A DNA stretch of 64,000 nucleotides from a virus (IMGVR_UViG_3300013121_000027:1-64000), one strand, 5' to 3'; positions 507-33,950 are shown, numbered from the stretch's first letter. Notes: generated by a model from the sequence alone, not told the origin. Made by a program: numbers and translations.

Positions 507-774
507 ACAGCCGCTTCCAGGTTCTACCGTACTCTGAAAAAGATGGGATCGTTACCGTTATCTGTACTACGGAATGATTCACTGATAGATATGTGTACAG
601 GGTATCCAGAGAAGACCGACTCTGAGGTGGGATGCGTATACCAAATAACGCATATTGGCATTTGTGGGTATAGGAGTTTTGCGGATTTTCCGACACATTC
701 TAAACTCACAGATGCCTCAGGAGAGGAAAAAGAGGGGATTCATTCCGGATTCCCACCTGACATAAGGAGATGTC

Positions 775-1149
775 ATGAACGTCAAGGAACTCACCCAGAA
801 GGTCACCGATCCCGTGGTGCTCGCCACCGGCACCGTGGTCGAGGGTATCCAGACCCGCAAGCTCGCCCGTCGTGCCTTCAAGGCTGCCAAGGAGCAGATG
901 AAGGCGGAAATGATCGCGGCAGGAATGCCCATCGTGATCGCTCAGGACGAGCAGAAGCGCATCGAAGAGGAAGCTGCCAAGGCTGCCCGACTCGCGGAGA
1001 AGGAGAGCAGGGATGCTGCCAAGCAGGCTGCTGCCATGGTCGAGACCCAGACCACGCTCACCGAAGCCATCGCGGAGCTCAACGCCAACGTGGTGAAGCT
1101 CTTCCAGGAGAAGGCTGTCAACAACACCACCGGTCAGCCCACCAGCTGA
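775..1149 (+). CDS. Hypothetical coiled-coil protein with GC3-rich (host-like) codon usage
   Basis: AAGGAG RBS, strong C/G third positions, downstream hairpin. Confidence 0.8.
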   Translation: MNVKELTQKVTDPVVLATGTVVEGIQTRKLARRAFKAAKEQMKAEMIAAGMPIVIAQDEQKRIEEEAAKAARLAEKESRDAAKQAAAMVETQTTLTEAIAELNANVVKLFQEKAVNNTTGQPTS

Positions 1150-1164
1150 TCTCACTCATGATAT

Positions 1165-1210
1165 TTGGGGTAGGACTTGTGGGGGATTCCACAGGTTTCT
1201 ACCCCATTTA
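1165..1210 (+). terminator. Stem-loop / probable intrinsic terminator
   Basis: tggggtaggacttgtgg...ccacaggtttctacccca followed by tttt. Confidence 0.55.
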
Positions 1211-1320
1211 TCACTCTCCGTGACATTATCCCTATAAACGGGATTCTACCCCGGAGAAAAATGACACCACCACCCTGATGTGGGTACCAAATAACCACCC
1301 TGAGTGATCATGGACCCATC

Positions 1321-1440
1321 TGCCCGAGCGAAGCGAGGGCAATAACCCGAGCGGAAGCGAGGGTTAGTAGACTATATAGGCGAGCGCAGCGAGCCATTGT
1401 TTCACGTGAAACATAGCGAGCGAAGCGAGCGACTATATAG
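1321..1440. repeat. Four CGAG-C(G)GAA/GCA-GCGAG hairpin repeats (ssDNA hairpin, primosome-assembly-like)
   Basis: cccgagcgaagcgaggg, cccgagcggaagcgaggg, ggcgagcgcagcgagcc, gcgagcgaagcgagc; gactatatagg occurs twice. Confidence 0.75.
1398..1413. promoter_or_regulatory. parS: parS site (perfect consensus palindrome)
   Basis: TGTTTCACGTGAAACA is an exact match to the canonical bacterial parS. Confidence 0.8.
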
Positions 1441-1527
1441 GCTAAAAATCCCCGTCTGCGTAGCAGCTTCTTGCAAAAAGAGGGGATTTCCCGCTCATTA
1501 CAAACGTCTCAAAGGAGGGACTCAACC

Positions 1528-1962
1528 ATGCTGTCCATGGGACTCATCTTGGCTGTCATGTCAGTGGCAGTGGAGATGTTCTTCGTCATTCAGTACGATG
1601 GGATCAGGCGATTCATGCTTCGGCATGAGAAATTCGGTCTGATCTTCTCGTTCCTGTTGTCGTTCTTCATCGGTGAGGTCTTTGGCGCTCATGGCGTCAT
1701 TGCTCTGTTCGCAGGCATGACCTCTACCGTGATCACGGCTGTGATCTATCAATCGGACGCTCTCGTCCTGGTAGATCGCTATAGGGAGCGTAAAGGTGAG
1801 ATTTCCACAAAACTCCATTCTTCCTGGACCAAGTTCCAGAATGTGGTGAAGTTCTGGTGGAAGATCATCTGCTTCCCTTATACATGCTGGATTGCCATCA
1901 AGGCTTTCTTCCAGCGTGTATCCAACAGCTACGACAGAGCGAAGAGCTTCATCCACCGCTGA
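1528..1962 (+). CDS. Hypothetical membrane protein
   Basis: GGAGG RBS before ATG 1528; about three hydrophobic segments. Confidence 0.75.
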   Translation: MLSMGLILAVMSVAVEMFFVIQYDGIRRFMLRHEKFGLIFSFLLSFFIGEVFGAHGVIALFAGMTSTVITAVIYQSDALVLVDRYRERKGEISTKLHSSWTKFQNVVKFWWKIICFPYTCWIAIKAFFQRVSNSYDRAKSFIHR

Positions 1963-2093
1963 TCTACTGCCAAGCACAACACCTCGCTACTGCCTTGGGG
2001 AGCAATCCCCAGGGCTGGTAGCCTATTCCCTTTCATAGGGAAAAATTAATGGTGTTGTAATGAATCTCATGTTGCAAAAGTCTCAAGGGGGCG

Positions 2094-2131
2094 GCAGGTT
2101 AAAAATCCTGTACAGCAGGTTAAAAATCCTG
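2094..2131 (+). repeat. 17-bp direct repeat GCAGGTTAAAAATCCTG x2 (21-bp period)
   Basis: Copies at 2094-2110 and 2115-2131; partial third copy near 2159. Confidence 0.8.
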
Positions 2132-2414
2132 AACCATCCTTGATTCGTTGAGATGGGGGCAGGTTAACTTATGGCATTAATTGCCTTCGTTAGCCAACAT
2201 ACTTATTCCCTTATACATGGATATTTATGTACACTGTGCTATATGCATATGTGTATGTATTATCATTCATGTGTGTGGAAGCATTTATGGGGATATGTAT
2301 GTGGTGCGGAAATTTTCCGTTTCTAAACCACCCGGTCTCTCTAACAGAGGTTTCGGTAATGCGGGTCTAATATTCGTGTTCTAATTCACCTGTAAAAAAG
2401 AGGGGATCGTGGAT

Positions 2415-2810
2415 CTCACTTCTTGTACAGGTGCTACTGCGTGCACTGTGCGGGAAGTTTCTCTTCCTCCTTGATACCGTGCACTGGTTCTGGTTTGCTG
2501 CCTTGTTCTACTTGGCGCAACCTCACGTAGTAGCATCTGTAGAGGATGTGAGTACCGTCCTCTGTCCCCGTACTCGGGGTCACTAACTGTCCACTTTGTC
2601 CGGTGGATACCCGCGAAGCGTTGCCGAGCGGATATGGCGATAAGCGTGAAGCTCACCACGCGAAACGCGAGCATACCCTGAGCAAGTATGTGGACACCCT
2701 TCGCTGCTCCTATGGAGCCATTCAATGCACTGTCCCGGTGCAGCTGACCTACTGATAAGATGGCTCGCTTAGCCATTCGAAACAGTAAGACACCTTAAGC
2801 AAGTGTTGGG
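2415..2810 (+). ncRNA. Candidate structured ncRNA
   Basis: No plausible ORF; 18-bp stem 2426-2443/2524-2541 with G.U pairs, several further hairpins; follows an AAAAAGAGGGG motif. Confidence 0.55.
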
Positions 2811-2886
2811 AACTCATTCTCACGATGGAAAAGAGGGGCAATCATTCTTGAGTGCCTCTCAAACTATATCGGCTAAGGAGACTGGT

Positions 2887-3066
2887 ATGTCATGCGTTTA
2901 CGCCCTCTGTACCGATCACCAACACTCCTGTGATGCTGATTCGTACTACAACCCGCAACCTTGCTACACTTGTGAACAAGCAAGTGAATGTGAGGAGTGC
3001 ATTCGTCTCTCTAAGGAGGCTGAAGATGCAACAGCAGATGATGCGGAATTTCACATCCCGCAGTAA
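2887..3066 (+). CDS. Small Cys-rich hypothetical protein
   Basis: AAGGAG RBS; CxxC-type clusters. Confidence 0.55.
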   Translation: MSCVYALCTDHQHSCDADSYYNPQPCYTCEQASECEECIRLSKEAEDATADDAEFHIPQ

Positions 3067-3320
3067 CTCTCATCCCGTACTCGCTACAGGTAATCTCATT
3101 GAGGGTACCCTTGGCGTCTTTGCCGTAGGTATGGGGATTTATTCCCTATTCCTGTATGGCTTCGGTGCCTCCCTCATCCTGTCACTCTGCTATACAGCAG
3201 CTGTGACCGTCATCGCTTTGATGAGCGCCTACAACCTCATGTAGTAGGTGCTCTTCGGAGTGGAAAAAGAGGGGTAGATAACTCATCTGCCCCACGGTTC
3301 ATCAGACATAGGAGGTCATC

Positions 3321-3902
3321 ATGAACCTGTCCCCGTCCACCCTGGTCGCTGCGATCAACCTGGAAGAGATCCCGGAGTCGTCCGTCAAGGACATCCGTCT
3401 TCCCGGTGGCAGCGCCGATGCGCGCAACGTGATCACCGGCAAGCAGTGCCGGACCATCCTGCGCTTCTTGCAGGACACCTTCGTGCCGCGTGATCCCGCG
3501 GTCACCCTGGAGTCCGGTCTCACCGTGCTCCGCCAGCGTGCTGGCATCACGGGCGGGTCCTTCGACTTCGGTCTGGTGGAGTACATCTTCCACCAGCTCC
3601 GCGAGCTGACGAAGGACGAGGCGCTCACCGAGCAGCAGGAGAAGCTCGCTGCGACGTGCACCCAGGCGCTCTCGGGCGTCAAGGATCACTTCGACGCCAG
3701 CATCCAGGCGCGCATCAACGCCCAGGACCGCATGATCCGTAACAAGATCATGCTCCAGTTCCTCGGCGTGCGCACCCGTGGCGATCTCACCGTCGCCATG
3801 AACATGTTCACGAACGTGTTCGGTGCTCCGCAGCCCAAGGGTGTCCTCACCCTGGACGAGCTGACCGGGGAGACCAGCGGTCTCGTCATCGGTCAGTTCT
3901 GA
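3321..3902 (+). CDS. Hypothetical protein, GC3-rich
   Basis: AGGAGG RBS, host-like codon bias, downstream hairpin 3918-3975. Confidence 0.8.
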   Translation: MNLSPSTLVAAINLEEIPESSVKDIRLPGGSADARNVITGKQCRTILRFLQDTFVPRDPAVTLESGLTVLRQRAGITGGSFDFGLVEYIFHQLRELTKDEALTEQQEKLAATCTQALSGVKDHFDASIQARINAQDRMIRNKIMLQFLGVRTRGDLTVAMNMFTNVFGAPQPKGVLTLDELTGETSGLVIGQF

Positions 3903-4116
3903 TCCACTCGATGTGGTTCTTCGCTCCTGCCTCACTCTTGCCTTCATGACTTGAGTGAGGTGGGGGCGAAAACCCTGCTTTACCAGGTGAATTAGATTGG
4001 CGTCTTAAAGTGTCATAATATTGTAATATGTAATTCGCACTTACGATTTATACACTTTTTTATATATACTACTATATAACTACATTTTTGTAGTTTAGAT
4101 TTAAGGTAGGTATTTT

Positions 4117-4326
4117 GTGAATACAATGCAAACCTTTCAGTATCGACAGAAGCCTCTTACTGCTATGGATTTTGTTAAGTCCATGACAGTAGGATTTGTT
4201 GGCGGATTTTCCGCCACATTCTTGACAGTCCTTGGACTGGCTATCCTTGGCTGGTGGTCACTGCTTATCACTATCCCCATTGCTTTTGCCATTGGTTGGG
4301 GTATTGGAGTGTATGCAGTAAGTTAA
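4117..4326 (+). CDS. Small membrane protein
   Basis: Two hydrophobic helices. Confidence 0.55.
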   Translation: MNTMQTFQYRQKPLTAMDFVKSMTVGFVGGFSATFLTVLGLAILGWWSLLITIPIAFAIGWGIGVYAVS

Positions 4327-4578
4327 ATAAAGACTCCATAAATAGGTGGAAAAAGAGGGGGAGATATCTCATGTCGAATCCTGATTGTGTCGCACGTAAT
4401 TGTACTAATGAAGCTACTGAAATCATCGAAGATGATGTATGCTTCTGTGCACAGCATGCACTGGATTTTTATTGGTATAAAAACCATGAAAATTATCCAG
4501 TTGAAGTTGCTATATCAGTACTGTGTGACTGACACTCTATCATACGAATATTATCCGCTACTAAGGAAGGACTTAGTA

Positions 4579-4941
4579 ATGATCATCCAAGATCAAACTC
4601 CTGAAGAGTTTTCTTCTGAAGAACTTCATGAAATCGATCATGACATCTGGGTCGCTGAAGCAGCAGCACAGGAGGGATTTCCTATTGCTGGCTTCGTAGA
4701 AGATATCTATGAAGATGCCGTAGTTCTTCTCATCGGTCCCATGTTTCGCTTTGACTGGCTCAAGCGAAAGCTCAAGATGGGACGTGTTATTCATATCAGT
4801 AAGATTAGCTCTGGTGGTATTCGTAGCTTTATCCTTCTTACTGAAGATGGTACGCAAGTTTCTTGCGTTTACGGTGGTACGTATCCGTGTTATTTCGCTT
4901 TGCCGGAAAACACCGAGGACAAATTCCGCATTCAATCCTAA
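4579..4941 (+). CDS. Hypothetical protein
   Basis: AAGGA RBS before ATG 4579. Confidence 0.6.
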   Translation: MIIQDQTPEEFSSEELHEIDHDIWVAEAAAQEGFPIAGFVEDIYEDAVVLLIGPMFRFDWLKRKLKMGRVIHISKISSGGIRSFILLTEDGTQVSCVYGGTYPCYFALPENTEDKFRIQS

Positions 4942-4954
4942 TAAGGAAATTGAA

Positions 4955-5206
4955 ATGCCAGAAGTATCCCAATACACTCTTGACTCATTAAAAAAGTTGG
5001 AGCAACGCGATCAAGAAGACGCAGCGCGAGCGCAAGCGAGCGCTGCTCCCACTCTTGAGTCTCTTGCGAAAGAGATCGCAGAACTGAAGGACGAAGTTCA
5101 TATACTTCGCGCCATCATTGATATCCACAATCAAGTCAATGTAACACAGGCTCAAATCAATCAAGAAGTTATCAAAAAACTTCGATTGTTTGGCATCATT
5201 ATCTAA
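4955..5206 (+). CDS. Hypothetical coiled-coil protein
   Basis: AAGGA RBS before ATG 4955. Confidence 0.6.
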   Translation: MPEVSQYTLDSLKKLEQRDQEDAARAQASAAPTLESLAKEIAELKDEVHILRAIIDIHNQVNVTQAQINQEVIKKLRLFGIII

Positions 5207-6186
5207 CTCGATCAGACGAGTAAAAATAGGAGTTTAAGTCTGATGCGTCCCTACCTGAAATTAAGTCAAAGGGGTAGGGGGTACTCAAGTCCCTGTGAGC
5301 TAATCCGCGCTCGGCATGTAGTCTTTAAATATTTTTGTGATATCACTATTGGCGTAGAAGATTTCGGATTATCGCCAAACAATCGTATCTATGTAGATTC
5401 TATAATCATAGATACACCTTTCAAACAATTATTATCTTGCTCAAATTAACATATGCTAAAGTCCCATAAAGTTATATATTTATGGGCATTGGGTTGAGTT
5501 CTAAAAAGGTGCTATTGAGTTCGATTAGTTCTGCTCATAGAAATGGATCTTCCAGCCTTCTATGCTCCAAATGCTAAGTCTATTGGGAAATAAACTTTGC
5601 GTTTGCCCCTTCATCTTTTTGATAGTTTGTTACGGGAATGTAAAATACTATGGACTACTCTTGTGTTATATCTGCAATGCGACAAGATATACCATAATAC
5701 CATTGAATTATAGCAATGGAAAATTTACATTCCCTTAAGAGATTATCAAAAGGAGTAATTAAATGATTGCTGCTTCAACACAAACAGAAGATATTCGTGG
5801 AGGAATTCTCTTTGTAGTTGTATTTGGTTTAGGAATTGGCTTTCTTTGGCTGATTACCCGCAATGCAACTATTTATCCGCCTCAGAAAAAGAGGGGAAGG
5901 AAAACTTCCTAAAAATCGTATCTTAAGTACTTAATTAATATGTGGAAATCTTAAGAACGCCTTACTCAATAACCTGAGAGTAATGGGTTGCATAGTTGGG
6001 TAACGCTATGTGACAAGCAAGTAAAACACTTAAAAGTCCCAGTCATGAGGAGACGTCTTGCCGTCTGTTATACCCCCCGCATGACTGGGCACTGATCTCG
6101 TATGTACCTCCTATATCATTGTGTGTACAAAAGGGTTTTACGGCTTTCCTTTAAAAACCGTATTGATCTAATAAGGAGACAAATGG

Positions 6187-6381
6187 ATGGCTCGTACCGA
6201 TGGACTATCGAAAGTTCTTGAGGAAGCTTTCGAACGAGGTTGGGTGATAGCTCGTAATAAAAATCACCTAATCATTCGATTCCCTCAGAACAATCAATGT
6301 GTCTCAATTTCGAAAACGGCATCCGACTGGCGTGCAATTCGAAATATCGAAAAGCAAATTCAGCGTTCTGAATTAGCTTAA
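6187..6381 (+). CDS. HicA-like protein
   Basis: GW..RNKNH...TASDWRAIRN pattern of phage HicA-like proteins; AAGGAG RBS. Confidence 0.6.
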   Translation: MARTDGLSKVLEEAFERGWVIARNKNHLIIRFPQNNQCVSISKTASDWRAIRNIEKQIQRSELA

Positions 6382-6853
6382 AGATCAACTCTGAGTGCCT
6401 TACCTCGGTGGTCCCATAGTCCGAATATTGTGTAGCTTGATCTGTGCATAAAACACATGGATTTAGGATATAACCAAAGATAGCTTGCTATCCGCTACTA
6501 AAAAGCGATCCGATAAACGAAGATATTTGGGTAAACACTATGGCAACTTTGCTTAATAACAGATTGAAAAGTAATGCAAGTCCTATATCTATAAGCTCAC
6601 TGTTAAGCTCATGTAATGGTATAGATATAGGCAGTTTCTACTTCTGGATATTAATACGATATAAAAAGTTCAGTTCTTTCGTGAACGAACTACGTGAATA
6701 TCCGACCCTCATCCGGCTGGAGGGTAAATACAGCGTGGGCGTGCCTGCTTGACTCCTTCGGGGAATAACACGTAATACGTAAGGAGATTAGGTTGGTTGT
6801 GGGTGACTACCATAAAAGTGGAACCCTCAATTTTTTTTCATGAAAGGATAAAC

Positions 6854-7045
6854 ATGAGAGTTGTTTGTGAAAATTCAGATCAACCTGGACAACCATGGCA
6901 TTATCTTGCAGATAGCATTCCTGCTCTTCCAATTCGTACAGCTGCTCGTGCAATTGGACAATTGACCAATTCCGCAAAAGAATGTATTGCGGTTACCGTT
7001 CATTTTGATGATGGTACTTCTACTAAAGTGACAGCATATGTCTAA
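6854..7045 (+). CDS. Hypothetical protein
   Basis: AAGGA RBS; overlaps the next ORF. Confidence 0.55.
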   Translation: MRVVCENSDQPGQPWHYLADSIPALPIRTAARAIGQLTNSAKECIAVTVHFDDGTSTKVTAYV

Positions 7046-7235: not shown

Positions 7236-7256
7236 CTAAGAAAGGAGCCATATCCC

Positions 7257-9609: not shown

Positions 9610-10365
9610 TCACGTACCAACTAATGCATTAAAAGCAGTTCCGTAGTCTAATACTGTATAGTTTAGACTTCTCAGCTTCATATTCGCATCCGCTAAAGAT
9701 GTATCTGCTGCTACACTAATCTGTAGTTTTGGATACATTCTATATATATTTTCCGTGTTCGGAATATAAACCCATCCTGATCCTCCAAATGAAGTATATT
9801 TTGTTGAAAATATACTATCAAATGTACATGGATAAGTAGCTGCGTGATATGGTGTAACAACTGGAATTCGCGAAAATTCTAAATAGTCTTCATCTCCTGC
9901 ATCATAAAAATCTGTACTAATAAAACCATCTTCAGAAATGCTTGTTACATCTGCTGCAGCATGTGTTCCAGAGGTTGACACAAAAGCAGAAAAAGATATG
10001 TGGTATAGATGTCCCATAATGGGGACTAATGTTCTTGTAGTTGAATTATTCCAACTTGCTTCATCACTAAAAGTGTAACTTGCGTTTTCATATCTAATTA
10101 CCCAAGGACTAACGCTGTTTGTCCATAAAGCATTAGTTACCGGCAATGAATAAGTCGCTGTTAAATCACCACCACCAAGAACTTTATCCATATCAATTCC
10201 TGATGCACCAGTACCTAAAGAATACATTGTTACTAATGTAATTAATGAATCTATTGAAGTACCTATTGGCGTTGATGGTGTTGCGGATTCTAATCCATTA
10301 AGTAATAAATTTCCGCTATTGATTTCCCATAAATTATTTCTGGTTAAAGAATAGTTACCCGGCAT
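9610..10365 (-). CDS. Hypothetical protein (beta-rich, possibly virion-associated)
   Basis: 251-aa S/T/G-rich ORF with AAAGGA RBS and TACTATA upstream. Confidence 0.65.
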   Translation of the reverse strand: MPGNYSLTRNNLWEINSGNLLLNGLESATPSTPIGTSIDSLITLVTMYSLGTGASGIDMDKVLGGGDLTATYSLPVTNALWTNSVSPWVIRYENASYTFSDEASWNNSTTRTLVPIMGHLYHISFSAFVSTSGTHAAADVTSISEDGFISTDFYDAGDEDYLEFSRIPVVTPYHAATYPCTFDSIFSTKYTSFGGSGWVYIPNTENIYRMYPKLQISVAADTSLADANMKLRSLNYTVLDYGTAFNALVGT

Positions 10366-10508
10366 GTCATTGTCCTTTGATCGAAGAATTCCCTTTCTAT
10401 AGTACCTTGAAGAATTGATTTCTTTTAAAGAGGAAAAAGAGGGGAACCTAAATCTTCTTCCACCTGCCGGGGGAAGATCAGTTCACGATCTGATTAAAAA
10501 TCGCACTT

Positions 10509-10597
10509 GTCCGGTTATTCAGGAGACGTGGTAAATCCATCTTTCAGTTGGGTTGTCAACGAAACTGCGCATGGGTTCGATTCCCTAAACCGGCACT
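10509..10597 (+). ncRNA. tRNA-like RNA (non-canonical or degenerate)
   Basis: ccggtt/aaccgg acceptor-like stem, GGGTTCGATTCCC T-arm, GG-containing D-like loop; no clean anticodon arm. Confidence 0.4.
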
Positions 10598-10635
10598 AAT
10601 AGATCCTGGCAGCTGTGCACAACATCGACAGCGGC

Positions 10636-11127
10636 TCAATTTAAGGTGAAACGATAATGTATGCCAGTCTTGTAGTTTGGATTATTCAACCCCTTTGAGC
10701 TTGTTTTAAAAGCTTCACTTCTACAAGAAATAGAACAAAAAGGATTTTCTGGATTTCTTACTTGCTTCTCATAACGTTTGAATAATTTAAAACATTGAGC
10801 ACAAATCCAATCTTTTCGTGTATCCTGTCCTCTTCTGCATGTTCCTACTTGTCCTCCAGAAGAAGAATTGTATCCTATTTTAGGATCACATGATTTAAAA
10901 TAAGATATCCAAAAAATTTCACGATCATTTAAGATTTCATCTTCGCATTCTTCGATTAACTCAATTTTGAAAAATTCTCTACCGTATTTTCTTATTGCTC
11001 GTGAAATAGGCATTTTTTCGCTTTTAGATGTACAATGCCTACTGAATCTTTCGTTTAATGGACGTATCGTTTGTCCAATATATACTTTATTATTTGACAA
11101 ACAAGTTATTTTGTAAATATTTCCCAT
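10636..11127 (-). CDS. GIY-YIG homing endonuclease
   Basis: NIYKIT...VYIGQT...R...E motif plus C-terminal Zn ribbon; TGATATAAT 6 nt before ATG. Confidence 0.9.
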   Translation of the reverse strand: MGNIYKITCLSNNKVYIGQTIRPLNERFSRHCTSKSEKMPISRAIRKYGREFFKIELIEECEDEILNDREIFWISYFKSCDPKIGYNSSSGGQVGTCRRGQDTRKDWICAQCFKLFKRYEKQVRNPENPFCSISCRSEAFKTSSKGLNNPNYKTGIHYRFTLN

Positions 11128-12165: not shown

Positions 12166-12366
12166 TGGAAGCTCCTTAAGTAAGGTGAACTTCTATTATA
12201 GTAATTCTATATATTGTCTGTTGCATAGGCGTCAGATTGGGGTGGTTTTGGGAGGACAGCTAAACATATCCAAACCTAAACCTATGCAACAGAGAGTATA
12301 TAGATATTTCTTGCTTGAAAAAGAGAGGGAAAGCAAGCATATTAAAGCACGGATTGGAGATAAATC

Positions 12367-12963: not shown

Positions 12964-13268
12964 ATTTCTTTCACATAAGTTGGCATAGTTGCTAAAATAA
13001 TGGCTCTTTATTATCACGAAGAAGAAAAAGAAGCTGAGTTAACAGAGATTTTTGAGCATGTATTTGGTAGGTGCGATTGCACTGCGGAAGAACCAGATGA
13101 AAATTGTCCTGAACATGGTGATTTTCAACATGCATAGATTTGGACATATTTAACGCTAAATCTATCCTTGGCAAAAACCAAAATGAGAAGAACTAACTTA
13201 GTTTAGCATCGTGCTAATTCTTCCCGTTATATATGTCCAATATTCTTTAAAAAAGAGGGGAGGTAATA

Positions 13269-20012: not shown

Positions 20013-21386
20013 ATGTCGCACGCAAAAATTTCATGTGTTATTGATTTGTCCTTTGGTGATTCCGGCAAGGGCGCACACGTAGATTATCTCTGTCGTAATG
20101 ACAATGCTCGTCTCGTTGTTCGCTTTAATGGTGGAAACCAAGCAGGTCACAATGTTGTGACTCCAGAAGGCTTGCATCATTGCTTCCATCTCTTTGGCAG
20201 TGGAAGCTTTATTCCTGGAGTAAATACTTATCTTGCTCCTACTGTTCTTGTAAATATTCAGGCGCTTCTAAAAGAAGTTCATGATCTTAACAAATACGTT
20301 ATTGCTCCTCTCCTTCCGAGAATGTTTATTCATGAAGATTGCCCTATCATTACTCCATATCATATTTATATGAATAGGTATATGGAAATTCTTCGTGAAG
20401 ATAGTCCTCATGGTTCTTGTGGGCAGGGGATTGGTGCTTGTGCAGCAGATCTTGAAACACTTCATCCTGCTCTTATTCTTAGGATAAGAGATATTAGGAA
20501 TCCTGAAATCTTGAAGAAGAAGCTTCAAGCTCTTTATGACAGATGTGTCTTTGATTTTCCTCTTCATCTTCTAACTGATGAGCAAGCAAAAAGAATTGGG
20601 ATTTATACCGATTATCTTGAAGAAAACTGGATAAATCAGCTCACAAACTATTATGTAAATTCTTCTTCTCTTCTTCAAATCGTAGATAATACCTTCTTTG
20701 CTAATGCTCTTGAACAATATGAACATATTGTATTTGAAGGAGCACAAGGGGTACTTCTTGATGAGTGGTATGGTTTCCATCCTTATACTACTTGGAGTAG
20801 TACTAATCTTCGCAATGTCCATGCTATATTTGATCAGTATAATTATGCTGGTGAATACCATAATTATGGTCTTCTCCGAGCATATACAACTCGTCATGGT
20901 GCTGGTCCATTTCCAACAGAAGATTCAACATTGCTTGAATTTCTTAACGATGAATACAATCCAACGAATGAATGGCAACAAGACTTTAGGGTAGGACATT
21001 TTGATCCTTCTCTCGTAATCTATGCTATTCGTATGGCAAAAGATCCTGAATCTAAATGGCGCGGAATTGATAGCCTTGTTATTAGTAATGTGGATAGAAT
21101 GTTTGGTCTTCATCCAAAAATTGCATCACATTATCATATAACTTTTGGACAAAAAGATATTAATCATCAAGCAGAAAAAGCTTCTCTCTTAATGCATATG
21201 AATCTTTCTAACTATTCAGGAGTTACTCATGATGTACTGAGCTTCGAAAATATGATGTCTTATATTAAAGATATCATTGATGAAGTTGGTAGATTTGTTT
21301 CTCCCATTGGAGCAGTTTCTATTGTTGGTGTTGGTCCAACTTCAAAAGATAGAATCGTTATTAATACTCCTATTTACAAATCCTGA
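20013..21386 (+). CDS. purA: Adenylosuccinate synthetase-like protein (PurA family)
   Basis: GDSGKG, RFNGGNQAGHNV, GSCGQGIG, FEGAQG, TRHGAGPFP. Confidence 0.85.
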   Translation: MSHAKISCVIDLSFGDSGKGAHVDYLCRNDNARLVVRFNGGNQAGHNVVTPEGLHHCFHLFGSGSFIPGVNTYLAPTVLVNIQALLKEVHDLNKYVIAPLLPRMFIHEDCPIITPYHIYMNRYMEILREDSPHGSCGQGIGACAADLETLHPALILRIRDIRNPEILKKKLQALYDRCVFDFPLHLLTDEQAKRIGIYTDYLEENWINQLTNYYVNSSSLLQIVDNTFFANALEQYEHIVFEGAQGVLLDEWYGFHPYTTWSSTNLRNVHAIFDQYNYAGEYHNYGLLRAYTTRHGAGPFPTEDSTLLEFLNDEYNPTNEWQQDFRVGHFDPSLVIYAIRMAKDPESKWRGIDSLVISNVDRMFGLHPKIASHYHITFGQKDINHQAEKASLLMHMNLSNYSGVTHDVLSFENMMSYIKDIIDEVGRFVSPIGAVSIVGVGPTSKDRIVINTPIYKS

Positions 21387-26785: not shown

Positions 26786-27434
26786 ATATTAAATTATAAA
26801 GTTTTGCTCTTTTTCTAACTGCATTATCTGATACTCCAAATATTTTTCCTGCTTGTACAAAATTTGTTGTTTTAAGAATTTTTTCTAACTCTTCTTTTGT
26901 AGGATTAAATTTTCTTAAATGAGATCTTCCAATTTTATTTCTTTCTTTTTCTTCTTTATCTTTTAACTTCTTTTCTAAATTTCTTCCTGCATAGCTTTGT
27001 GTTTGTGTATGACAATTAGGACATAGAATTTGTAGATTTTCTATTCTATGATCATTATATATTCCATTAATATGATCTAATTGTAAAGTTAATGGTTTTC
27101 CATTCCATTCTGATCCAATTTTACATTCATTACATTTTTCTTCTAATATATTATTTTGATAAAGTTTTTTCTTTATCAAATCTCTGTTTGTATATAAAGA
27201 ATTTTCTTTAAAAATATCTTCCCATGGAATCATTATATAACCTCTGGCATGGTTTATATTACTTTTTCCTATTTTGGGTTTTAGTCCAAATTCTTTACAT
27301 GCGTTATGAAATGCTTTAAAATTTCCTCCAGCAGATCTTAATCCTAAAAACTTTAAAGCATCTGAGATACTTTCTGTTTTCTCTATAGCTTCTTTGAGTT
27401 CTTCTCTATTTTGTAGTATACTTCTTGTTCTCAT
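26784..27434 (-). CDS. HNH homing endonuclease inserted in tRNA-Gln
   Basis: CNEC...LQLDHINGIYNDHRIENLQILCPNCH; C-terminal HTH-like GVSDNAVRKR. Confidence 0.9.
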   Translation of the reverse strand: MRTRSILQNREELKEAIEKTESISDALKFLGLRSAGGNFKAFHNACKEFGLKPKIGKSNINHARGYIMIPWEDIFKENSLYTNRDLIKKKLYQNNILEEKCNECKIGSEWNGKPLTLQLDHINGIYNDHRIENLQILCPNCHTQTQSYAGRNLEKKLKDKEEKERNKIGRSHLRKFNPTKEELEKILKTTNFVQAGKIFGVSDNAVRKRAKLYNLI

Positions 27435-27445
27435 TATTATTCCTT

Positions 27446-27527
27446 TGGGGAGTAGCCGACATTGGTATAGGCATCAGCCTTTGGAGCTGACGCGAAAGCA
27501 TTGAGGGTTCGATTCCTTCCTCCCCAA
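27446..27527 (+). tRNA. tRNA-Gln(TTG) with a long variable arm
   Basis: tggggag/ctcccca acceptor, tcagc-ctTTGga-gctga, variable region cgcgaaagcatt. Confidence 0.88.
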
Positions 27528-27567
27528 CTGCTACTTCATGTAGTAATTCTATTTATTGGCAAACTAA

Positions 27568-27596
27568 CATTTAGGGTTCGAATCCTTATACCCCTA
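27568..27596 (+). pseudogene. 3' half of the split tRNA-Gln
   Basis: CATT-TAGGG-TTCGAAT-CCTTA-TACCCCT-A; TACCCCT pairs 7/7 with AGGGGTA at 26753. Confidence 0.8.
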
Positions 27597-27598
27597 CT

Positions 27599-28066
27599 AT
27601 GAAATATATATCTTGTCCATTTGGAACTCAATTTCATCCTATCAAATGTGAATTAAAAGATGACACTTTACTTTTAGCTAATTTTGACCTACTTCAAAAG
27701 GCTTGGGGCGCTTTAGGATATTCTCCTTATCCTCATTATTGGTATCAATTTCGTAATGGCTTTGGACTATCTGTTTTTAAGTATAAAAAAGACTTATGGG
27801 AATATGCAGTTTTGGATCATACTGAAAGTATTGCCGGATTTTATCTTCCAGACGTAGCTCACATTTTTAATGGCGCATTAACACCAGGCAATCAACATTT
27901 AGTTCATGCAGTGGTAGAAAAGGGCGTTCATACAATACTTAATGCTCTTCAATCTCATCCTAAAATCTTTGAATTTGATCCTCTTTATGTGGTTTATTCT
28001 TTTTCAGATGATCCAATTCCCCTAAAGCCTGTACAAGCTGATGAGGATAAAATTGATTTGTTTTAA
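27599..28066 (+). CDS. Hypothetical protein
   Basis: FRNGFGLSV pattern. Confidence 0.65.
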   Translation: MKYISCPFGTQFHPIKCELKDDTLLLANFDLLQKAWGALGYSPYPHYWYQFRNGFGLSVFKYKKDLWEYAVLDHTESIAGFYLPDVAHIFNGALTPGNQHLVHAVVEKGVHTILNALQSHPKIFEFDPLYVVYSFSDDPIPLKPVQADEDKIDLF

Positions 28067-28088
28067 AAAAGAGGGGAAATAGTTTTCT

Positions 28089-28451
28089 ATGGTTCAAATT
28101 TATAATCAAAGACATAAAGATGCTCCTTATGGAGCACTTTACGTTGGTCGTCCAACTCAATACGGTAACAAGTTCACTCATCTAAAATCTAAAACTTTAG
28201 CTGAGGTTCAGGTTGCAACAGTTGCCGAATCAATTGAATCTTATTATAAATACATTAGATCTCTTTATCCTCAATTTGATACCCAAGAGGCTCATGACTT
28301 TTTTGCTCCTCTTGTAGACAAAGATCTGATTTGTTGGTGTGCCCCCAAAGGAGGTATTCCTCACCAGCAACGTCCTTTTATTTGTCATGCTCAAATCCTT
28401 GCCTTTATGGCTGAATCCTATAAGATTCTATTTTCACAGAAATCAAAATGA
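28089..28451 (+). CDS. DUF4326 family protein
   Basis: YVGRPTQYGNKF...KDLICWCAP...CHA. Confidence 0.8.
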   Translation: MVQIYNQRHKDAPYGALYVGRPTQYGNKFTHLKSKTLAEVQVATVAESIESYYKYIRSLYPQFDTQEAHDFFAPLVDKDLICWCAPKGGIPHQQRPFICHAQILAFMAESYKILFSQKSK

Positions 28452-28556
28452 AAAAGAACTGTTCTATTAATGGTTGTCAATATCCATTTGGTGTTTGTCA
28501 AGCTGAAGCCGATAATAGCATTGTAAATACTGAAGATCCCGCAATTCTTAAATTTA

Positions 28557-29081
28557 TTGAAATTCGTTGCGCTCAAGCTAAAGAAATGGATAGTGAACGC
28601 GGTGCCTATTACAATTTTAGAAAAGACTGATTTACTTTCTCTTGAAGTTGATATGATAGCTCATGGAGTTAACTGCCAAGGTGTAATGGGTGCTGGAGTA
28701 GCTTTGGCTATTCGTAATAAGTACCCCGATGTATTCAAGTCCTATACCACTTTCATTAGTGCATACCGTAAGATGAAGATTTCACCTCTTGGTATGGCTC
28801 ATTTATGGCAAGATCCACAAACTAAAATCACCATTGCTAATCTCTTTACCCAAGATAAGTATGGACGAGACCCTAAAATCCAATATGCCTCATATGAGGC
28901 TATTCAAACTGCTTTTCATTGGATGTTTCTCTATGCAAAAGCCCGCAAAATGCAGTCAATAGCTATGCCTAAAATTGGTTGCAACTTAGGTAATGCACAA
29001 TGGGATAAGGTTCTTTCTATTCTTACTGAAGAATATGAGAAAAGTAAATGGACTGGCGAATTGAAAGTAGCAGTTTTGTAA
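28557..29081 (+). CDS. Macrodomain (ADP-ribose-processing, Poa1p/TARG1/DarG-like)
   Basis: IAHGVNCQGVMGAGVA...IANLFTQ...MPKIGCNLG; true start is probably a GTG near 28600. Confidence 0.88.
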   Translation: MKFVALKLKKWIVNAVPITILEKTDLLSLEVDMIAHGVNCQGVMGAGVALAIRNKYPDVFKSYTTFISAYRKMKISPLGMAHLWQDPQTKITIANLFTQDKYGRDPKIQYASYEAIQTAFHWMFLYAKARKMQSIAMPKIGCNLGNAQWDKVLSILTEEYEKSKWTGELKVAVL

Positions 29082-29683
29082 TGTCCTTTGTTCAACCTAT
29101 TATAGTACCTAATCGTGGTACTCACGAAAATACAATTAAGGCTGTAGTCTTTGCTGCCTATGCCGCTTTTATGGGTCGCTTTGCAAATCCCCATTACCCT
29201 ATTGAAAATTGGGATAAGTGGCTTGCTGGTTCTTTTACTAAAAGTATCCGACGAGCAGATGAAAAACTTTGGAAGAAAATTCATTTGCTCTCAGGTAAAA
29301 CTATTGTTTCTTTAGATGGTGGTACAGGTCAAGCTATAGCTTTTCCTCCAATGAAAGAATTTCCAAAAGAAATTAAAAAGTGTCAAGTAGCTGATACCGA
29401 CTTTGAACGAACTGGATGGATTCATCCTCCAGCTAATGGATTTGTTCTTGCAATTAATCCTAATGTTCAGATGACTACAGGTAAAACTGCTGCACAGTGT
29501 GCTCATGCATATTTAGGATTTCATCTTTCTTATCCTGATATTCGCTGTTCTTTGCGAATAACTGATGATCCAATAGCTTTTCAGGTTCTTAAGAATTCTC
29601 GAAAAGAAAAGGTAGAAATAAATGATGCTGGATTTACTGAGGTAGATCCTGGTACACTTACTGTAATAGCTGGTATACTCTAA
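29081..29683 (+). CDS. Peptidyl-tRNA hydrolase Pth2-like protein
   Basis: MTTGKTAAQCAHA and DAGFTEVDPGTLT motifs. Confidence 0.85.
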   Translation: MSFVQPIIVPNRGTHENTIKAVVFAAYAAFMGRFANPHYPIENWDKWLAGSFTKSIRRADEKLWKKIHLLSGKTIVSLDGGTGQAIAFPPMKEFPKEIKKCQVADTDFERTGWIHPPANGFVLAINPNVQMTTGKTAAQCAHAYLGFHLSYPDIRCSLRITDDPIAFQVLKNSRKEKVEINDAGFTEVDPGTLTVIAGIL

Positions 29684-29835
29684 GGGATCTCTTATGTTGA
29701 TTGGTGCACTTTTAGTTGCGTGGGGAGTCACACTCGTTAAGGCTCCTCCCCCTCATAGTGACGATTTCTTTTGGGGTGTCGTTTGGATACTTGTTGGTTC
29801 CGGCATCTTTCTTAGAAATCTATTTGAAGATTAAA

Positions 29836-30102
29836 ATGACCGAAATTCCCAAAATCAAACATCGTTTCTTTTGGTGGAAACCACAGTGGGGATATAGATT
29901 TCCTATCTATTTTACTCGTGGAGAAGATGAGTTTGGTTGGCGAAATATAGGTATTATTACTTGGGCTGGTTCTGTATTCTTTCGTACCAACATGTGCTAT
30001 AATGATGAATGTGTTCAAGCTCGTCTTGAACATTGGAAATTCGTCAAGGAAGAATTTCCTGAAGAATATATTTCTTATTTTAAAGAAAAGAAAAAGAAGT
30101 AA
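29836..30102 (+). CDS. Hypothetical protein
   Basis: ORF track, in-frame ATG at 29836. Confidence 0.5.
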   Translation: MTEIPKIKHRFFWWKPQWGYRFPIYFTRGEDEFGWRNIGIITWAGSVFFRTNMCYNDECVQARLEHWKFVKEEFPEEYISYFKEKKKK

Positions 30103-30121
30103 AAATCCTTCTTAACAGTTT

Positions 30122-30312
30122 CGTGTAGTGCGTTGAGCATATTTATGCAGACGAGTATGTTCAATCTCCCCGATCGCACTACACGTATACAAGTCCTACT
30201 GGATACAGTTCGTTTCTCCTTTCTGGCTGTAACCAGTAGGCGATTTCTTTACAGGTCGATATGGGGATTGGGATAATTCCTTTGTCATAAAATTTATCCC
30301 TTTCCCCATATC
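30122..30312 (+). ncRNA. Three consecutive long hairpins (candidate ncRNA)
   Basis: cgtgtagtgcg/cgcactacacg; cctactgg/ccagtagg; gatatgggga/tccccatatc. Confidence 0.55.
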
Positions 30313-30544
30313 AAATATTATGGCAAAACCAACTCAAGATAATTTTCTATGTAATTTAACCCCTCATACAACTCATGTACTCTGCGACATTCTTGGCAGT
30401 TATCAAACTCGTTGCCAAATAGCAGCTGAAGAAGGATTTCCTTCTCTTCTAAAAGAATATGAAGTAATTGCTCCATTTCATGAAGCACTTGCTAAACACC
30501 TCAATACAATTAGATATTAACTTAACTTTTTTTAAGGAGATAAA

Positions 30545-31576
30545 ATGACTACTACCACCGCCCTAAAGACTGTGTTTGCTAAGGACGAGAGGACTGAGAA
30601 TTGGCTAAGGAGTCATGGTGTAATCTTTACCGGTCCAGTCGCAATTAAGCTCACTGACATTGACCGGAAAGTTTCTCGCAACAACCAAGCTCGTGACAAG
30701 GCTCTTATCGAAGATGCCGTAGATAGCTATCGTCAGGCACTTCGTAATGGGCAAGCCCTCCCGGCTATTGTTGTTCACAAGGTCGGTGCTAAGTATGTCA
30801 TCGTAGATGGCAATAATCGAGATCAAGCCGCCAATGAAGAAAAAGCTCTCAAGGCAATGGCTTATGTTCTCGATCCCGCTACTCCTTCAGAAACCATCAC
30901 TCTTCTTACCGTTACCGCAAACACCACTAATGGTGTTCGTGTTGATAAGTCTTGGTCCCTTCACAATGCTCTTTATCTCACTGAGCTTGGTTGGACTAAG
31001 GACAAAGCTGCTCGCGCCTTGAACGTTTCTGTTGCAGCTATTTCCGCTCATGAAAAAGAGCGCAACACTGGCAAGCGTGCTGTCGATCTGCGTATCACTG
31101 GGTGGAATACCATGCCCGTTCGCGTTCGTCAGATGCTTGGTCGCATTAAGCTTGATAAGCCGTTTGTGATTGTTGCTGAGGCGGCGATCGTTACTAAAAT
31201 TGGCTCATCTACTGAACTCAATGAAACGATTACCAAGATCAATCACGCAACCACTGAAGAAGAAGCAATTGAAATTGCTTCTCAGTGGGCTCGCGCAACT
31301 ATTGAAAATGCCAAGCAAAATGCTCGTATGGGCAAGAAGCATGGTAAGACCGACAACCCTAAGCTCAGTCTTATGACTGGTCTTGGTAAGGTTTCTGCTT
31401 TTAATCTTGGCATCTTCAATGCTACTTTCTCAACTGATGAAGATCGCCGCATCATCAAAGAGCGTCTTGACACCACTCTTGAAAAGCTTCTTCAAATGCG
31501 TTTCCGTTTGGTTGGAAAAGACGAAACCGAAGAGCAGGTTCTCACACTGCTCGACAATATTGGTAACGAGGGGTAA
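30545..31576 (+). CDS. ParB-like protein (ParB N-terminal domain plus HTH)
   Basis: LPAIVV...IVDGNNRDQAA (GxxRxxA) and KAARALNVSVAAIS HTH. Confidence 0.75.
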   Translation: MTTTTALKTVFAKDERTENWLRSHGVIFTGPVAIKLTDIDRKVSRNNQARDKALIEDAVDSYRQALRNGQALPAIVVHKVGAKYVIVDGNNRDQAANEEKALKAMAYVLDPATPSETITLLTVTANTTNGVRVDKSWSLHNALYLTELGWTKDKAARALNVSVAAISAHEKERNTGKRAVDLRITGWNTMPVRVRQMLGRIKLDKPFVIVAEAAIVTKIGSSTELNETITKINHATTEEEAIEIASQWARATIENAKQNARMGKKHGKTDNPKLSLMTGLGKVSAFNLGIFNATFSTDEDRRIIKERLDTTLEKLLQMRFRLVGKDETEEQVLTLLDNIGNEG

Positions 31577-31578
31577 CA

Positions 31579-32226
31579 ATGCCCAGATCACCTGAGTATG
31601 ATTTAATCATGAGTGAACTCACTTTTGATTGGGTCAATATTGAGGATTTGATTTCTAAACTTTCCGGAAAAGTTCTTCCTGGTAAAGCTGTTCGCGAATA
31701 TCAACAGGCTTTTGATCTCCATCGCGCCAAGGCTAAAGGAACTGGTCCCGCTAAGGGACCTCTTCCCCAAGATCAGCAAATTTATTCTGGTGCGCGTTCT
31801 ATTCTGCGAGGCGCTTTACGTTCTGCTGAACTTGCTAATAATGTTCAAATTCGCAAAATAGCTAACGTAACTTATGTTCGCCGTAATGTTTTTACTGCTG
31901 ATGAAGTTGAAGCTATTGTAGCTGATAAAGTTTCAAATGAAATTCAAATTCCTCAAGTAATTGCGGATGCTTTAATTCCTCATATTTTTGATACTTTGAT
32001 GTTTGATATTCGAACTGTCAAGACTGTTGAAGTTCGTTGCAATCAGGATAAAACAAATGTCACTATCACTTTCAAAGATGTTCTTGATAAACAGAATTTG
32101 ACCGTTGCCCTTACTGAACAGGCTGCCGACTGGTTAAGTGATCAGTTAGGCATTCAGGCATTGATGGCTCGTAATGGTGCTGATAACCCACGTAAAGCTA
32201 TTCCTCATTCGTCTCGTTTTACCTAA
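31579..32226 (+). CDS. Hypothetical protein
   Basis: Starts 2 nt after the ParB-like gene ends. Confidence 0.7.
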   Translation: MPRSPEYDLIMSELTFDWVNIEDLISKLSGKVLPGKAVREYQQAFDLHRAKAKGTGPAKGPLPQDQQIYSGARSILRGALRSAELANNVQIRKIANVTYVRRNVFTADEVEAIVADKVSNEIQIPQVIADALIPHIFDTLMFDIRTVKTVEVRCNQDKTNVTITFKDVLDKQNLTVALTEQAADWLSDQLGIQALMARNGADNPRKAIPHSSRFT

Positions 32227-32362
32227 ATCTCTTTCCTGCTTGGAAAAGAAAAAGATTTTATTCAGATTTCTGAACTCAATCTTTAATAACAAATAATAAC
32301 AACCATAACTTACCTTAACCCTTTATGGGCTATCTGAGTTTATTAGCTATTGGAGTATAACA

Positions 32363-33409
32363 ATGAATCACGCTCTTCTCGATGGGCTCCTGGAAGATTT
32401 CGGTACCTTTGATGATACCCTTGAGCAGTTGGAAATGTCCGGTGAGATCGTAACGATCGCTGCCGGTAAATGGAACAACGCTCAGGAAGCTATTGTCGTT
32501 GGTGACAAGAGTCATATGTTCAATGTGAGGTATCGCTTCGCTGATCCGATTCTGTCCTCGATCATTCTTCGTAAGACTCTTACCGCTACTCATCCTGAGG
32601 GTCGCATCGACTTCAATGCCACTATCGTTTCCCACCGCGACCTTCAGGTCCAGGTTGGTGACGATTGGATTGACATCGGCGCCTTTGCCGCTGCTGCGGT
32701 TCGTCGTGCCTCGCCCAATGCTCATCAGACTGATGACACCATCCTGAACATTCTCGCTCAGTATGGTTGGAATCCTACTGAGCGTTTTCCGATGTATCTC
32801 CAGCACCTTGGCGCTGGTCAGGATGCATTCAACCAGATCGCTAGTCATTTTGTGAGCATTGGTGCTACCGACAATACCAAGGATGTGCGTTCTCGTGCAC
32901 AGGGTCAGCGTAGCTCTGTTCTCGCTGCCTATCGTCATCCTGGTGATGTTCCCGTCATTTCCATGGAAACCTCCAAGGCAAACCGCAGTCTCAGCATGAC
33001 GGGCTCTGGCTTCATCGGTTTCCTCGATGGCACTTGGGGTACCTTGACCAAGGTTCTTGTTGCTCACCGTACTCGTCAGGCTCTCCAGACGATTCTCGAC
33101 AACCCGAACTCTACTGAGGCTCAGCGTACTCAGGCAGCTGCCAATCAGGCTCACATTCGCAACATTTTCACCACTCCCGTTCTTGCCCGTGCCTTCCGTA
33201 ACTGGGGTGGCACGACTGAAGTTCCTGATGTTCTCGGTGAGAACCCCAGCCGCTACTTCGCACAGCAGGTTCCTTGTGGTCGTTTCACCATTGACGGTGG
33301 TACGACCTACTCGGTGTGGACTTCTCGTGCAGATGGTACCGCTACGGCAACTCTTCCTGCTGCGACTCTTGCGGACGCTCTTCCTGCTTTGGAAACTGGT
33401 ACTTTCTGA
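32363..33409 (+). CDS. Hypothetical protein with high-expression codon bias
   Basis: GGAG RBS; strong optimal-codon usage. Confidence 0.8.
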   Translation: MNHALLDGLLEDFGTFDDTLEQLEMSGEIVTIAAGKWNNAQEAIVVGDKSHMFNVRYRFADPILSSIILRKTLTATHPEGRIDFNATIVSHRDLQVQVGDDWIDIGAFAAAAVRRASPNAHQTDDTILNILAQYGWNPTERFPMYLQHLGAGQDAFNQIASHFVSIGATDNTKDVRSRAQGQRSSVLAAYRHPGDVPVISMETSKANRSLSMTGSGFIGFLDGTWGTLTKVLVAHRTRQALQTILDNPNSTEAQRTQAAANQAHIRNIFTTPVLARAFRNWGGTTEVPDVLGENPSRYFAQQVPCGRFTIDGGTTYSVWTSRADGTATATLPAATLADALPALETGTF

Positions 33410-33639
33410 AAAGAAAGATGTAGCGCCAATATTCTCATATAGGTGCTACAAAGATGGTTTTAAATTCTTTTAATTGGTTGCTCATCGAATTAAAGGAATT
33501 CTAAATCTCTTACCGCCCCCGCAAGAGATTCCAGAACGCCATCGATAAAACTAAAGTTTAGAATTAGGTTTTATCGCTCTTTTATATGATAAGATACGAT
33601 ACTGTTAATATCCTTTCTCATTAAAGGTATTTCAATATC

Positions 33640-33852
33640 GTGACCAAACAACATAATTGTAAAGAAGTAAATTCAATGCTGAAGCAGATTGAGAAGCATG
33701 GCTTTTCCGTCTCCGCAAAAGCTAAATCTGGTAGCGTTAAGATAACTCCACCTTCAAATATTAAAGGTACTGTTTATCATACCCATGCTACTCAATCTTC
33801 ACTTCATCAAATCAGACGTGATTTTGCACGATTATATGGAGTGAAACTTTAA
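33640..33852 (+). CDS. HicA-like small protein
   Basis: HGFSV...GSVKITPP...H...IRRDF resembles the dsRBD-like HicA fold. Confidence 0.45.
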   Translation: MTKQHNCKEVNSMLKQIEKHGFSVSAKAKSGSVKITPPSNIKGTVYHTHATQSSLHQIRRDFARLYGVKL

Positions 33853-33950
33853 GTTGATGTTTTGTTACTCGTCTTTGAAAAAGATGGGGAATAATTCAAG
33901 TTCTGCAAATAAATATCAATCAACTTTACAAGGGGAGAAGTTTCAATACC

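Follow-up and report, generated by a model that had tools for sequence, protein, structure and literature searches.

A repeated purine word between two polymerase genes of an uncultured phage: a candidate class II promoter of a proposed phage RNA polymerase relay

The DNA studied here, below called the window, comprises the first 64 kb (64,000 nucleotides, nt) of a phage record in IMG/VR, IMGVR_UViG_3300013121_000027. The complete record, G000, has 231,459 base pairs (bp), and its ends share a repeat of 141 nt that looks like the overlap of a circular assembly. Genes on the + strand run from about 221 kb through the origin of the record to about 105 kb, and the minus-strand genes at 105.8-220.8 kb form the late, structural block. 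Our subject is a word of 11 bases, all of them purines, AAAAAGAGGGG, that recurs on the + strand of the window, together with three genes for RNA polymerases (RNAPs) of the same phage, here called RNAP-1, RNAP-2 and RNAP-3. A first reading of the window (the original prediction) had proposed the word as a promoter for the phage polymerase.

There are nine exact copies of the word, all on the + strand and all within the first 28 kb, at the positions named in the original prediction (Table 1). In dinucleotide-preserving shuffles 0.06 copies are expected in the window, and the chance expectation for the genome is 0.10. No further exact copy exists on either strand in the rest of the 231,459-bp record, and with the exception of a word from the T-arm of tRNAs, no 11-mer of the genome is more over-represented than AAAAAGAGGGG. 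Copies with one mismatch number five on the + strand: those at 2828, 12318 and 33878 had been noticed before, and the ones at 537 and 47270 are additions. The copy at 47270, AAAAAGAGGAG, lies within an open reading frame (ORF) and is probably a chance occurrence. With two mismatches the frequency is that of the background. Conservation is limited to about 12 nt, the base after the motif being A in seven of the nine exact copies.

The position of the copies is as uneven as their number. The interval that begins where the RNAP-2 gene ends and reaches to the first codon of RNAP-1 makes up 15% of the genome and contains all nine exact copies; the probability of such a placement by chance is about 4e-8. 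Of the five one-mismatch copies, four fall in this interval too.

RNAP-1, whose gene concludes the motif-marked block, is a protein of 873 residues with a GGPDLDD loop. It has 81 metagenomic homologs, and scans of the 873-residue protein against Pfam and PHROG gave no match. The family profile gave noise only when compared with PDB sequences, and therefore a fold search was needed to identify the protein. An AlphaFold2 model based on the alignment of homologs has a pLDDT of 87.8. With this model, Foldseek finds RDR2 of maize and Arabidopsis and QDE-1 of Neurospora (E-values from 5e-7 to 5e-5), and also the gp64 RNAPs of the P23-45 family (8f72, 8f5m) and the virion RNAP of the crAss-like phage phi14:2 (6vr4). 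By predicted fold RNAP-1 is a two-barrel single-chain RNA polymerase, in agreement with the polymerase-like character that the original prediction had given to it.

The family profile of RNAP-1 also detects a second polymerase gene, which lies outside the window. By sequence, RNAP-2 is a clear paralog of RNAP-1 (hhalign probability 99.5%, E-value 2.7e-23) and has the DLDD loop. In this phage it is part of a tightly packed operon that starts at about 221 kb. A sigma-70-like element, TTGCAA-17 nt-TATATT, was read by eye at G000:221003-221037, 7 nt ahead of the first ATG of this operon; it is a possible leaderless entry point of the host RNAP into the programme. The third gene, RNAP-3, is an ORF of 1470 residues in the late block and adjoins an ORF of 2158 residues. 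It has an HGGHDLDD catalytic block in common with RNAP-1, at a probability of 94% and an E-value of 1.3e-7. A search for sigma-70 region 2 (Sigma70_r2) found none in the genome, with positive controls detected, and a search for T7-like RNAPs with PF00940 found no match in the genome and none in the control genomes either.

Among GenBank phages no match was obtained by megablast of 28-40 kb or by tblastn of RNAP-1. The relatives that we compare were all found via the polymerases themselves. A scan of IMG/VR with RNAP-1 as a single protein gave no matches; an alignment-based scan gave 43 loci that encode homologs of RNAP-1, at about 30% identity. The comparison includes six genomes (G001-G004, G007 and G008), the contigs L102 and L103/L104, and the loci L052-L056.

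A search of the whole genome and of relatives had been suggested along with the original prediction, and it finds the motif or lineage-specific variants of it in the same polymerase-bounded interval and in the same orientation. We refer to these words as class II. The word is AAAAAGAAGGG in G001 (6 of 7 copies in the interval), G002 (4 of 4) and G004 (6 of 6), AAAAATAGGGG in G003 (3 of 3), AAATAGAAGGG in G007 (5 of 5) and AAGAAAAGGG in G008 (6 of 6). The interval from RNAP-2 to RNAP-1 is 4-7% of each of these genomes, and the copies in it are all on the gene strand. In the six genomes and two contigs taken together, all copies except one stray in G001 are downstream of the RNAP-2 gene, and before RNAP-1 where both genes are seen. 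The block always starts just past the RNAP-2 gene, the first copy of the cluster being about 100-650 nt past the RNAP-2 stop codon in the six relatives, and in G001, G002, G004 and G007 the last copy is 27-40 nt before the ATG of RNAP-1.

The closer loci and the contigs give a similar picture. In L053-L056, the closest loci in which DNA was read (72% identity in RNAP-1), AAAAGAAGGG is present at the site homologous to 33878. The variant is clear only in these four of the five closer loci, L052 having a doubtful AAGGAAAGGGGGG before RNAP-1. Several of the 43 RNAP-1 loci have multiple one-mismatch variants on the strand of the polymerase, upstream of genes. Homologs of RNAP-2 are known from 12 contigs. 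The contigs L102-L104 were found by RNAP-2 only, with which they share 45-48% identity. L103 and L104 contain AAAAAGAGGGG itself four times, and one near-copy, at most 1.7 kb past the RNAP-2 stop codon, and L102 contains TAAAAGAGGGG five times downstream of that stop. Neither L102 nor L103 has copies upstream of RNAP-2 or on the opposite strand. The known ends of the class II words are GAGGGG, GAAGGG, TAGGGG and AAAGGGG, and more distant lineages have unrelated repeated words at the equivalent place.

Across the clade 58 class II sites were available. Of these, 64% are followed within 65 nt by a start codon that has a Shine-Dalgarno (SD) sequence before it, compared with 14% of random positions (Fisher p 5e-18). 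The spacing from motif to start ranges from 5 to 70 nt; distances of 8-12 nt form a peak, and those of 17-70 nt a broad group. A 5' hairpin beginning at the G-run and shared by the sites is not supported: sites and controls do not differ in minimum free energy (p 0.34), and the excess of stems of at least 6 bp, 26% of sites against 15% of controls, has a p-value of 0.02 that is uncorrected.

A second class of words is found one block earlier. In G001-G004 and G007 a class I word (TTTATGGGTAG, CTCTTTATGG or TTTATGACTAG; TTTTTCTTTTATGGGTAG and variants) is present in 8-14 copies in the block before RNAP-2, for example at G004:115984-126008 on the minus strand. In G004 most copies lead a small gene, and 12 of the 14 are directly behind a hairpin with a T-run (flanks were read in G004 alone). 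Since terminators precede them, the class I copies must restart transcription. The last class I copy is 32-54 nt before the ATG of RNAP-2 in G001, G002, G003 and G007. The class I block ends with the RNAP-2 gene and the class II block ends with the RNAP-1 gene; relative to ribosome binding sites (RBSs), the position of class II is equivalent to that of class I. In the phage studied here a search from 220.5 kb to 6.5 kb gave neither the class I motif nor a second repeated word, and in L102-L104 no class I word can be recognised.

It should be added that the base composition is not even over this region. A high-GC island of 52-56% GC extends from about G000:223400 to 231318 and over positions 1-3950 of the window, in a genome of about 36% GC. 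Its genes have a GC at third codon positions (GC3) of 0.6-0.89, and it contains RNAP-2 and the first motif-led cassettes, with just four of the nine exact motif copies. The island is conserved and no recent import, because RNAP-2 is surrounded by an equivalent high-GC island in L102-L104.

The individual sites of this phage are listed in Table 1. In the long intergenic regions the motif is 37-48 nt from the downstream start and 198-430 nt from the upstream stop. For the genes at 775, 1528, 2887 and 3321 the original prediction had stated a distance of about 40-50 nt and an RBS separate from the motif, and both statements hold.

Table 1. Motif copies, polymerase genes and other features. Positions refer to the window, or to the complete record where G000 is given.
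Feature	Position	Strand	Context
One-mismatch copy AAAAAGATGGG	537-547	+	first site past the RNAP-2 operon
Exact copy	727-737	+	37 nt before ATG 775, own RBS AAGGAGA
Exact copy	1475-1485	+	42 nt before ATG 1528, own RBS AAGGAGG
Exact copy	2395-2405	+	then 429 nt without credible ORF, strong predicted RNA structure
One-mismatch copy GAAAAGAGGGG	2828-2838	+	48 nt before ATG 2887, own RBS
Exact copy	3264-3274	+	46 nt before ATG 3321, own RBS; 9-bp hairpin from G-run
Exact copy	4350-4360	+	10 nt before ATG 4371
Exact copy	5886-5896	+	then 290 nt without credible ORF, up to ATG 6187
Exact copy	10434-10444	+	flanked by two minus-strand ORFs; ORF-free stretch downstream
One-mismatch copy AAAAAGAGAGG	12318-12328	+	38 nt before ATG 12367, own RBS
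Exact copy	13250-13260	+	8 nt before ATG 13269
Exact copy	28066-28076	+	first base is final base of upstream stop codon; 12 nt before ATG 28089
One-mismatch copy AAAAAGATGGG	33878-33888	+	62 nt before RNAP-1 start 33951, own RBS
RNAP-1 gene	33951-36572	+	last gene of motif-marked block
RNAP-2 gene	G000:227585-230275	+	within high-GC island
RNAP-3 gene	G000:166642-171054	minus	late block
Pistol self-cleaving ribozyme	5206-5282	+	starts on last stop-codon base of gene 4955-5206
Adenylosuccinate-synthetase homolog	20013-21386	+	PF00709
ParB-like gene	30545-31576		

Three copies, those at 2395, 5886 and 10434, had been described as standing before structured RNA free of ORFs. There is indeed no credible + strand ORF after any of them. 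Significant structure is limited to the first: the + strand stretch 2402-2830 (429 nt) folds with -165 kcal/mol, a z-score of -4.3 against shuffles, and is a candidate non-coding RNA of the phage. The fold of 5893-6186 is marginal (z -2.4) and 10441-10700 is unstructured (z +0.1). A minus-strand ORF at 2381-2776 does not have the GC3 bias of the island. Rfam at a permissive threshold gave no family for the ORF-free stretches after the three copies, its one match being the Pistol ribozyme.

A few further observations belong to the surroundings of the sites. About 70 nt past the copy at 10434 there is a tRNA-like piece on the + strand (10511-10600), with the T-arm word GGGTTCGATTCCC at 10573-10585 and a possible acceptor pairing CCGGTT/AACCGG; it is called neither by ARAGORN nor by Rfam. 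The Pistol ribozyme, within the motif-marked early block, scores 43.7 bits with Rfam RF02679, for which the gathering score is 34.5. Upstream of the copies at 537, 727 and 2395, at a distance of 28-70 nt, we find GCGGA(A)ATTTTCCG and then TTCTAAAC (680-705, 2305-2328, 499-506), and TCTAAACC is found upstream of motif copies in L102 and L103 as well.

The reading of these data that we favour makes AAAAAGAGGGG a candidate class II promoter within a relay of phage polymerases, with RNAP-2 as its most likely reader; we give it a probability of about one half. The word would be the core of a compact single-block promoter, and its reader one of the two-barrel single-chain RNAPs of the phage. It would mark the 5' ends of early units, which code for proteins or, in at least one case, for a structured non-coding RNA, in a block of 35 kb that extends from just past the RNAP-2 gene to the RNAP-1 gene. 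RNAP-2 would be made first, because its gene closes the preceding block; it would then fire the class II promoters and thereby yield RNAP-1, which would in turn take over later genes. By analogy with P23-45, transcription probably starts either at the G-run or some 9 nt further downstream. We infer all three: the action as a promoter at the DNA level, the identity of the reading polymerase and the position of the transcription start.

Several features expected of the promoter of a phage RNAP are seen here. A short motif occurs above chance upstream of genes and co-oriented with them, in a genome that encodes a matching RNAP. Further, the motif is confined to one block, and in polymerase-bearing relatives it is kept in place with a lineage-specific sequence. 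The original idea of a promoter for the phage polymerase is upheld as far as a transcription-start-like signal tied to phage RNAPs is concerned, and is not upheld for the product of the gene at 33951 as the reader. This enzyme is likelier the product than the reader of the motif, because a near-copy precedes its gene and relatives have an exact copy 27-40 nt before its start.

Several observations weigh against this reading. The choice of RNAP-2 as the reader has gene order as its entire basis, and as the motif and all polymerase paralogs diverge together, their co-variation does not separate RNAP-2 from RNAP-1. The conserved block is just 11-12 nt long, and no upstream sequence is conserved with it. 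At three sites the G-run is 8-12 nt before an ATG and could be the SD sequence of that gene; the motif would therefore be at least partly transcribed, either from a start at its own G-run or by read-through. Right after some copies (G004 99796, G008 148965) there is a terminator-like hairpin with a T-run, which is odd for a promoter. Finally, the first step of the relay is invisible in this phage, because no class I motif is recognisable either here or in the nearest RNAP-2 relatives.

The main rival that involves no promoter is an element acting at the RNA level, in 5' untranslated or intercistronic regions, where it could bind a regulator, serve cleavage or punctuation, or enhance the loading of ribosomes. 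We consider it unlikely, even if several features fit. The motif is strand-specific, purine-rich and SD-like, always on the sense strand, and overlaps the position of an SD sequence at 4350, 13250 and 28066. Other RNA punctuation is present in the early region, in the form of the Pistol ribozyme and interspersed tRNAs, and most class II units have no terminators between them. However, class I occupies the equivalent position and follows terminators, so it must restart transcription, and an exact word of 11 nt in a single polymerase-bounded block looks like the promoters of phage P23-45. The spacing of 5-70 nt to starts that have separate canonical RBSs, the copies in front of ORF-free RNA and the lack of a significant common RNA structure at the sites also speak against an RNA element. 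A role in sequence-specific termination or pausing of a phage polymerase, comparable to that of the class II terminator of T7 or of the 26-nt conserved terminator motif of the virion RNAP (vRNAP) of P23-45, we regard as extremely improbable. Motif-type terminators do exist in P23-45, in every genome the first copy comes shortly behind the RNAP-2 stop, and some copies are fused to a hairpin and T-run (the two in G004 and G008 given above). Termination is disfavoured because the motif adjoins the downstream gene and not the upstream stop, as is seen in the long intergenic regions; in addition, a copy stands directly before the RNAP-1 gene, which must be expressed, and the sites of this phage have no + strand hairpin with T-run.

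Two other rivals keep the promoter and change its reader. If the motif were read by RNAP-3, as a putative virion polymerase that is injected, the block would be the first to be transcribed in this phage. Such a role agrees with the catalytic block that RNAP-3 has in common with RNAP-1, with its place among the minus-strand late genes and with the missing class I motif, and it has a parallel in P23-45, where transcripts for the second polymerase come from the virion enzyme. It is nevertheless quite improbable, as in relatives with both classes it is class I that is furthest upstream, before RNAP-2, which is the natural place for promoters of a virion enzyme, and the class II word is common to those two-class relatives. 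That RNAP-1 itself reads the motif, with the copy before its own gene providing positive autoregulation, we regard as very improbable. It is a polymerase by predicted fold, and the motif block adjoins its gene and is co-oriented with it. However, the gene is downstream of the whole block and right behind a copy in G000, G001, G002, G004, G007 and L053-L056, so another enzyme must fire the motif first; nor is there any exact copy in the approximately 70 kb of + strand genes past RNAP-1. A site for a phage regulator is one more conceivable alternative.

Four other explanations were tried and rejected. An SD role is disfavoured because the spacing is variable and the RBSs are separate: six sites are 37-62 nt from a start that has its own RBS, three have no ORF, and SD-like spacing is limited to 4350, 13250 and 28066. 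The statement that the motif is not simply an SD sequence was thus well founded. No intrinsic terminator is present on the + strand at any site of this phage; the terminator scan gave one match at the motif sites, on the minus strand at 5909-5895, and the site at 3264, judged by eye, would also fold in this way on the minus strand. A parS site of ParB, which is a palindrome of 16 bp, does not agree with an asymmetric, all-purine motif, and the palindrome TGTTTCACGTGAAACA is separate from it at 1398-1413. A sigma-dependent promoter of the host RNAP was rejected because the genome has no Sigma70_r2 and the motif no second conserved block, gp55-type factors not having been searched.

The palindrome just mentioned is a perfect one of parS type, and a cluster of GCGAAGC mini-hairpin words surrounds it (window 1321-1440). 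Words as in that cluster, GAGCGAAGCGAG, are also found downstream of a motif copy in L103 (13926-13975).

Other repeated words are present in the genome. The word (G/T)TACTATA(T) stands 35-45 nt before several late genes (ends 134681, 183572, 186804, 192155, 193824 and 197449) and also at 10398-10405 of the window on the minus strand, in front of the gene 9610-10365 of that strand. Upstream regions are enriched in this word (6 of 28, with 0.33 expected), the genome as a whole is not; it is a candidate late promoter or -10-like element. About 11 copies of TATAGATCCAGAT / ATCTGGATCTATA, with 0.17-0.5 expected, are distributed genome-wide over both strands (G000: 37549, 100353, 107103, 120633, 131950, 147106, 160609, 179683, 186411, 189332 and 221568). 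Finally, the adenylosuccinate-synthetase homolog (PF00709, E-value 1.6e-60) has a best PHROG named PurZ-type, which raises the question of 2-aminoadenine DNA.

Returning to the class II promoter read by RNAP-2, a wider picture can be sketched, which we put forward as tentative. An uncultured clade of phages of 200-270 kb may have a self-contained relay of three paralogous two-barrel RNAPs with a DxDD loop. The gene of each free-standing polymerase would be the last in the block of the previous enzyme, and block-specific, single-block promoters of 10-14 nt, co-diversified with the enzymes, would be used, AAAAAGAGGGG being that of RNAP-2. Where the ATG is 8-12 nt past the motif, the mRNAs would be leaderless or nearly so. 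No published description of this clade or of its motifs was found in the literature.

If the favoured reading is true, a promoter would be at hand for a polymerase family that has neither a published description nor a Pfam or PHROG model, and the family could be tested directly on a site of 11 bp whose specificity variants occur in nature. The paradigm of phage two-barrel RNAPs set by P23-45 would gain a second example, one with three steps. Natural variants of the motif, taken with the diverged enzymes, would constitute a data set on sigma-free promoter recognition by minimal relatives of cellular RNAPs. In addition, the motifs would offer a simple annotation of temporal gene classes in a large uncultured clade of jumbo phages.

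Among known signals, the motif resembles an SD sequence in being purine-rich, located on the sense strand upstream of starts and in having a GAGG core. It differs in being an exact 11-mer in one block, whereas ordinary RBSs (AAGGAGG) are found genome-wide. In T7 the G-run of the promoter, which has 23 bp, is the +1 GGG, and the phi10 leader has a hairpin. As in T7, T3 and SP6, promoter and polymerase change together here, a G-run comes after an A/T-rich stretch, and some sites have a hairpin from the G-run; however, the polymerases have unrelated folds, the block has 11 nt instead of 23 bp, and the enrichment of 5' hairpins is not significant. In coliphage N4 transcription passes from the vRNAP to RNAPII and then to the host RNAP, and the vRNAP promoters are DNA hairpins. 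The logic of a relay, in which the gene of each enzyme is expressed by the previous one, is common to both; in contrast, the N4 enzymes are T7-like and their promoters hairpins, and no common hairpin is seen here.

The jumbo phages phiKZ and AR9 have virion and non-virion RNAPs of their own, with short promoter motifs near the transcription start (PMC7598289). Those enzymes are multisubunit and beta/beta'-like, unlike the single-chain, QDE-1/gp64-like polymerases described here.

The closest comparison is with P23-45, which has two two-barrel RNAPs, gp96 in the virion and the non-virion gp64 (Chaban et al. 2024, PMC10770324). The virion enzyme is fused to the tape measure protein, and its promoters, TTATTCCTTTA, extend as far as the transcription start, several standing right after terminators (PMC10770324). 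It transcribes the gene of gp64, the non-virion RNAP (nvRNAP), whose own promoters, tCTAGGGGc, are about 9 nt before the start (PMC10770324). The words differ between the two systems, and there are three paralogs here and two there, a DLDD loop instead of DxDxD, and jumbo genomes of 200-230 kb. In P23-45 the host RNAP does the middle and late transcription. The gp64 core CTAGGGG is similar to the TAGGGG and GAGGGG ends of class II variants, which is a resemblance only. The likeness extends to the fold of RNAP-1, as in 8f72 and 8f5m, and to compact single-block motifs of about 10 nt without conserved upstream sequence. In both systems the motifs cluster block by block along the genome, a terminator is found beside the promoter (here in the class I copies of relatives), and the gene of the next polymerase is located behind the previous class of promoter.

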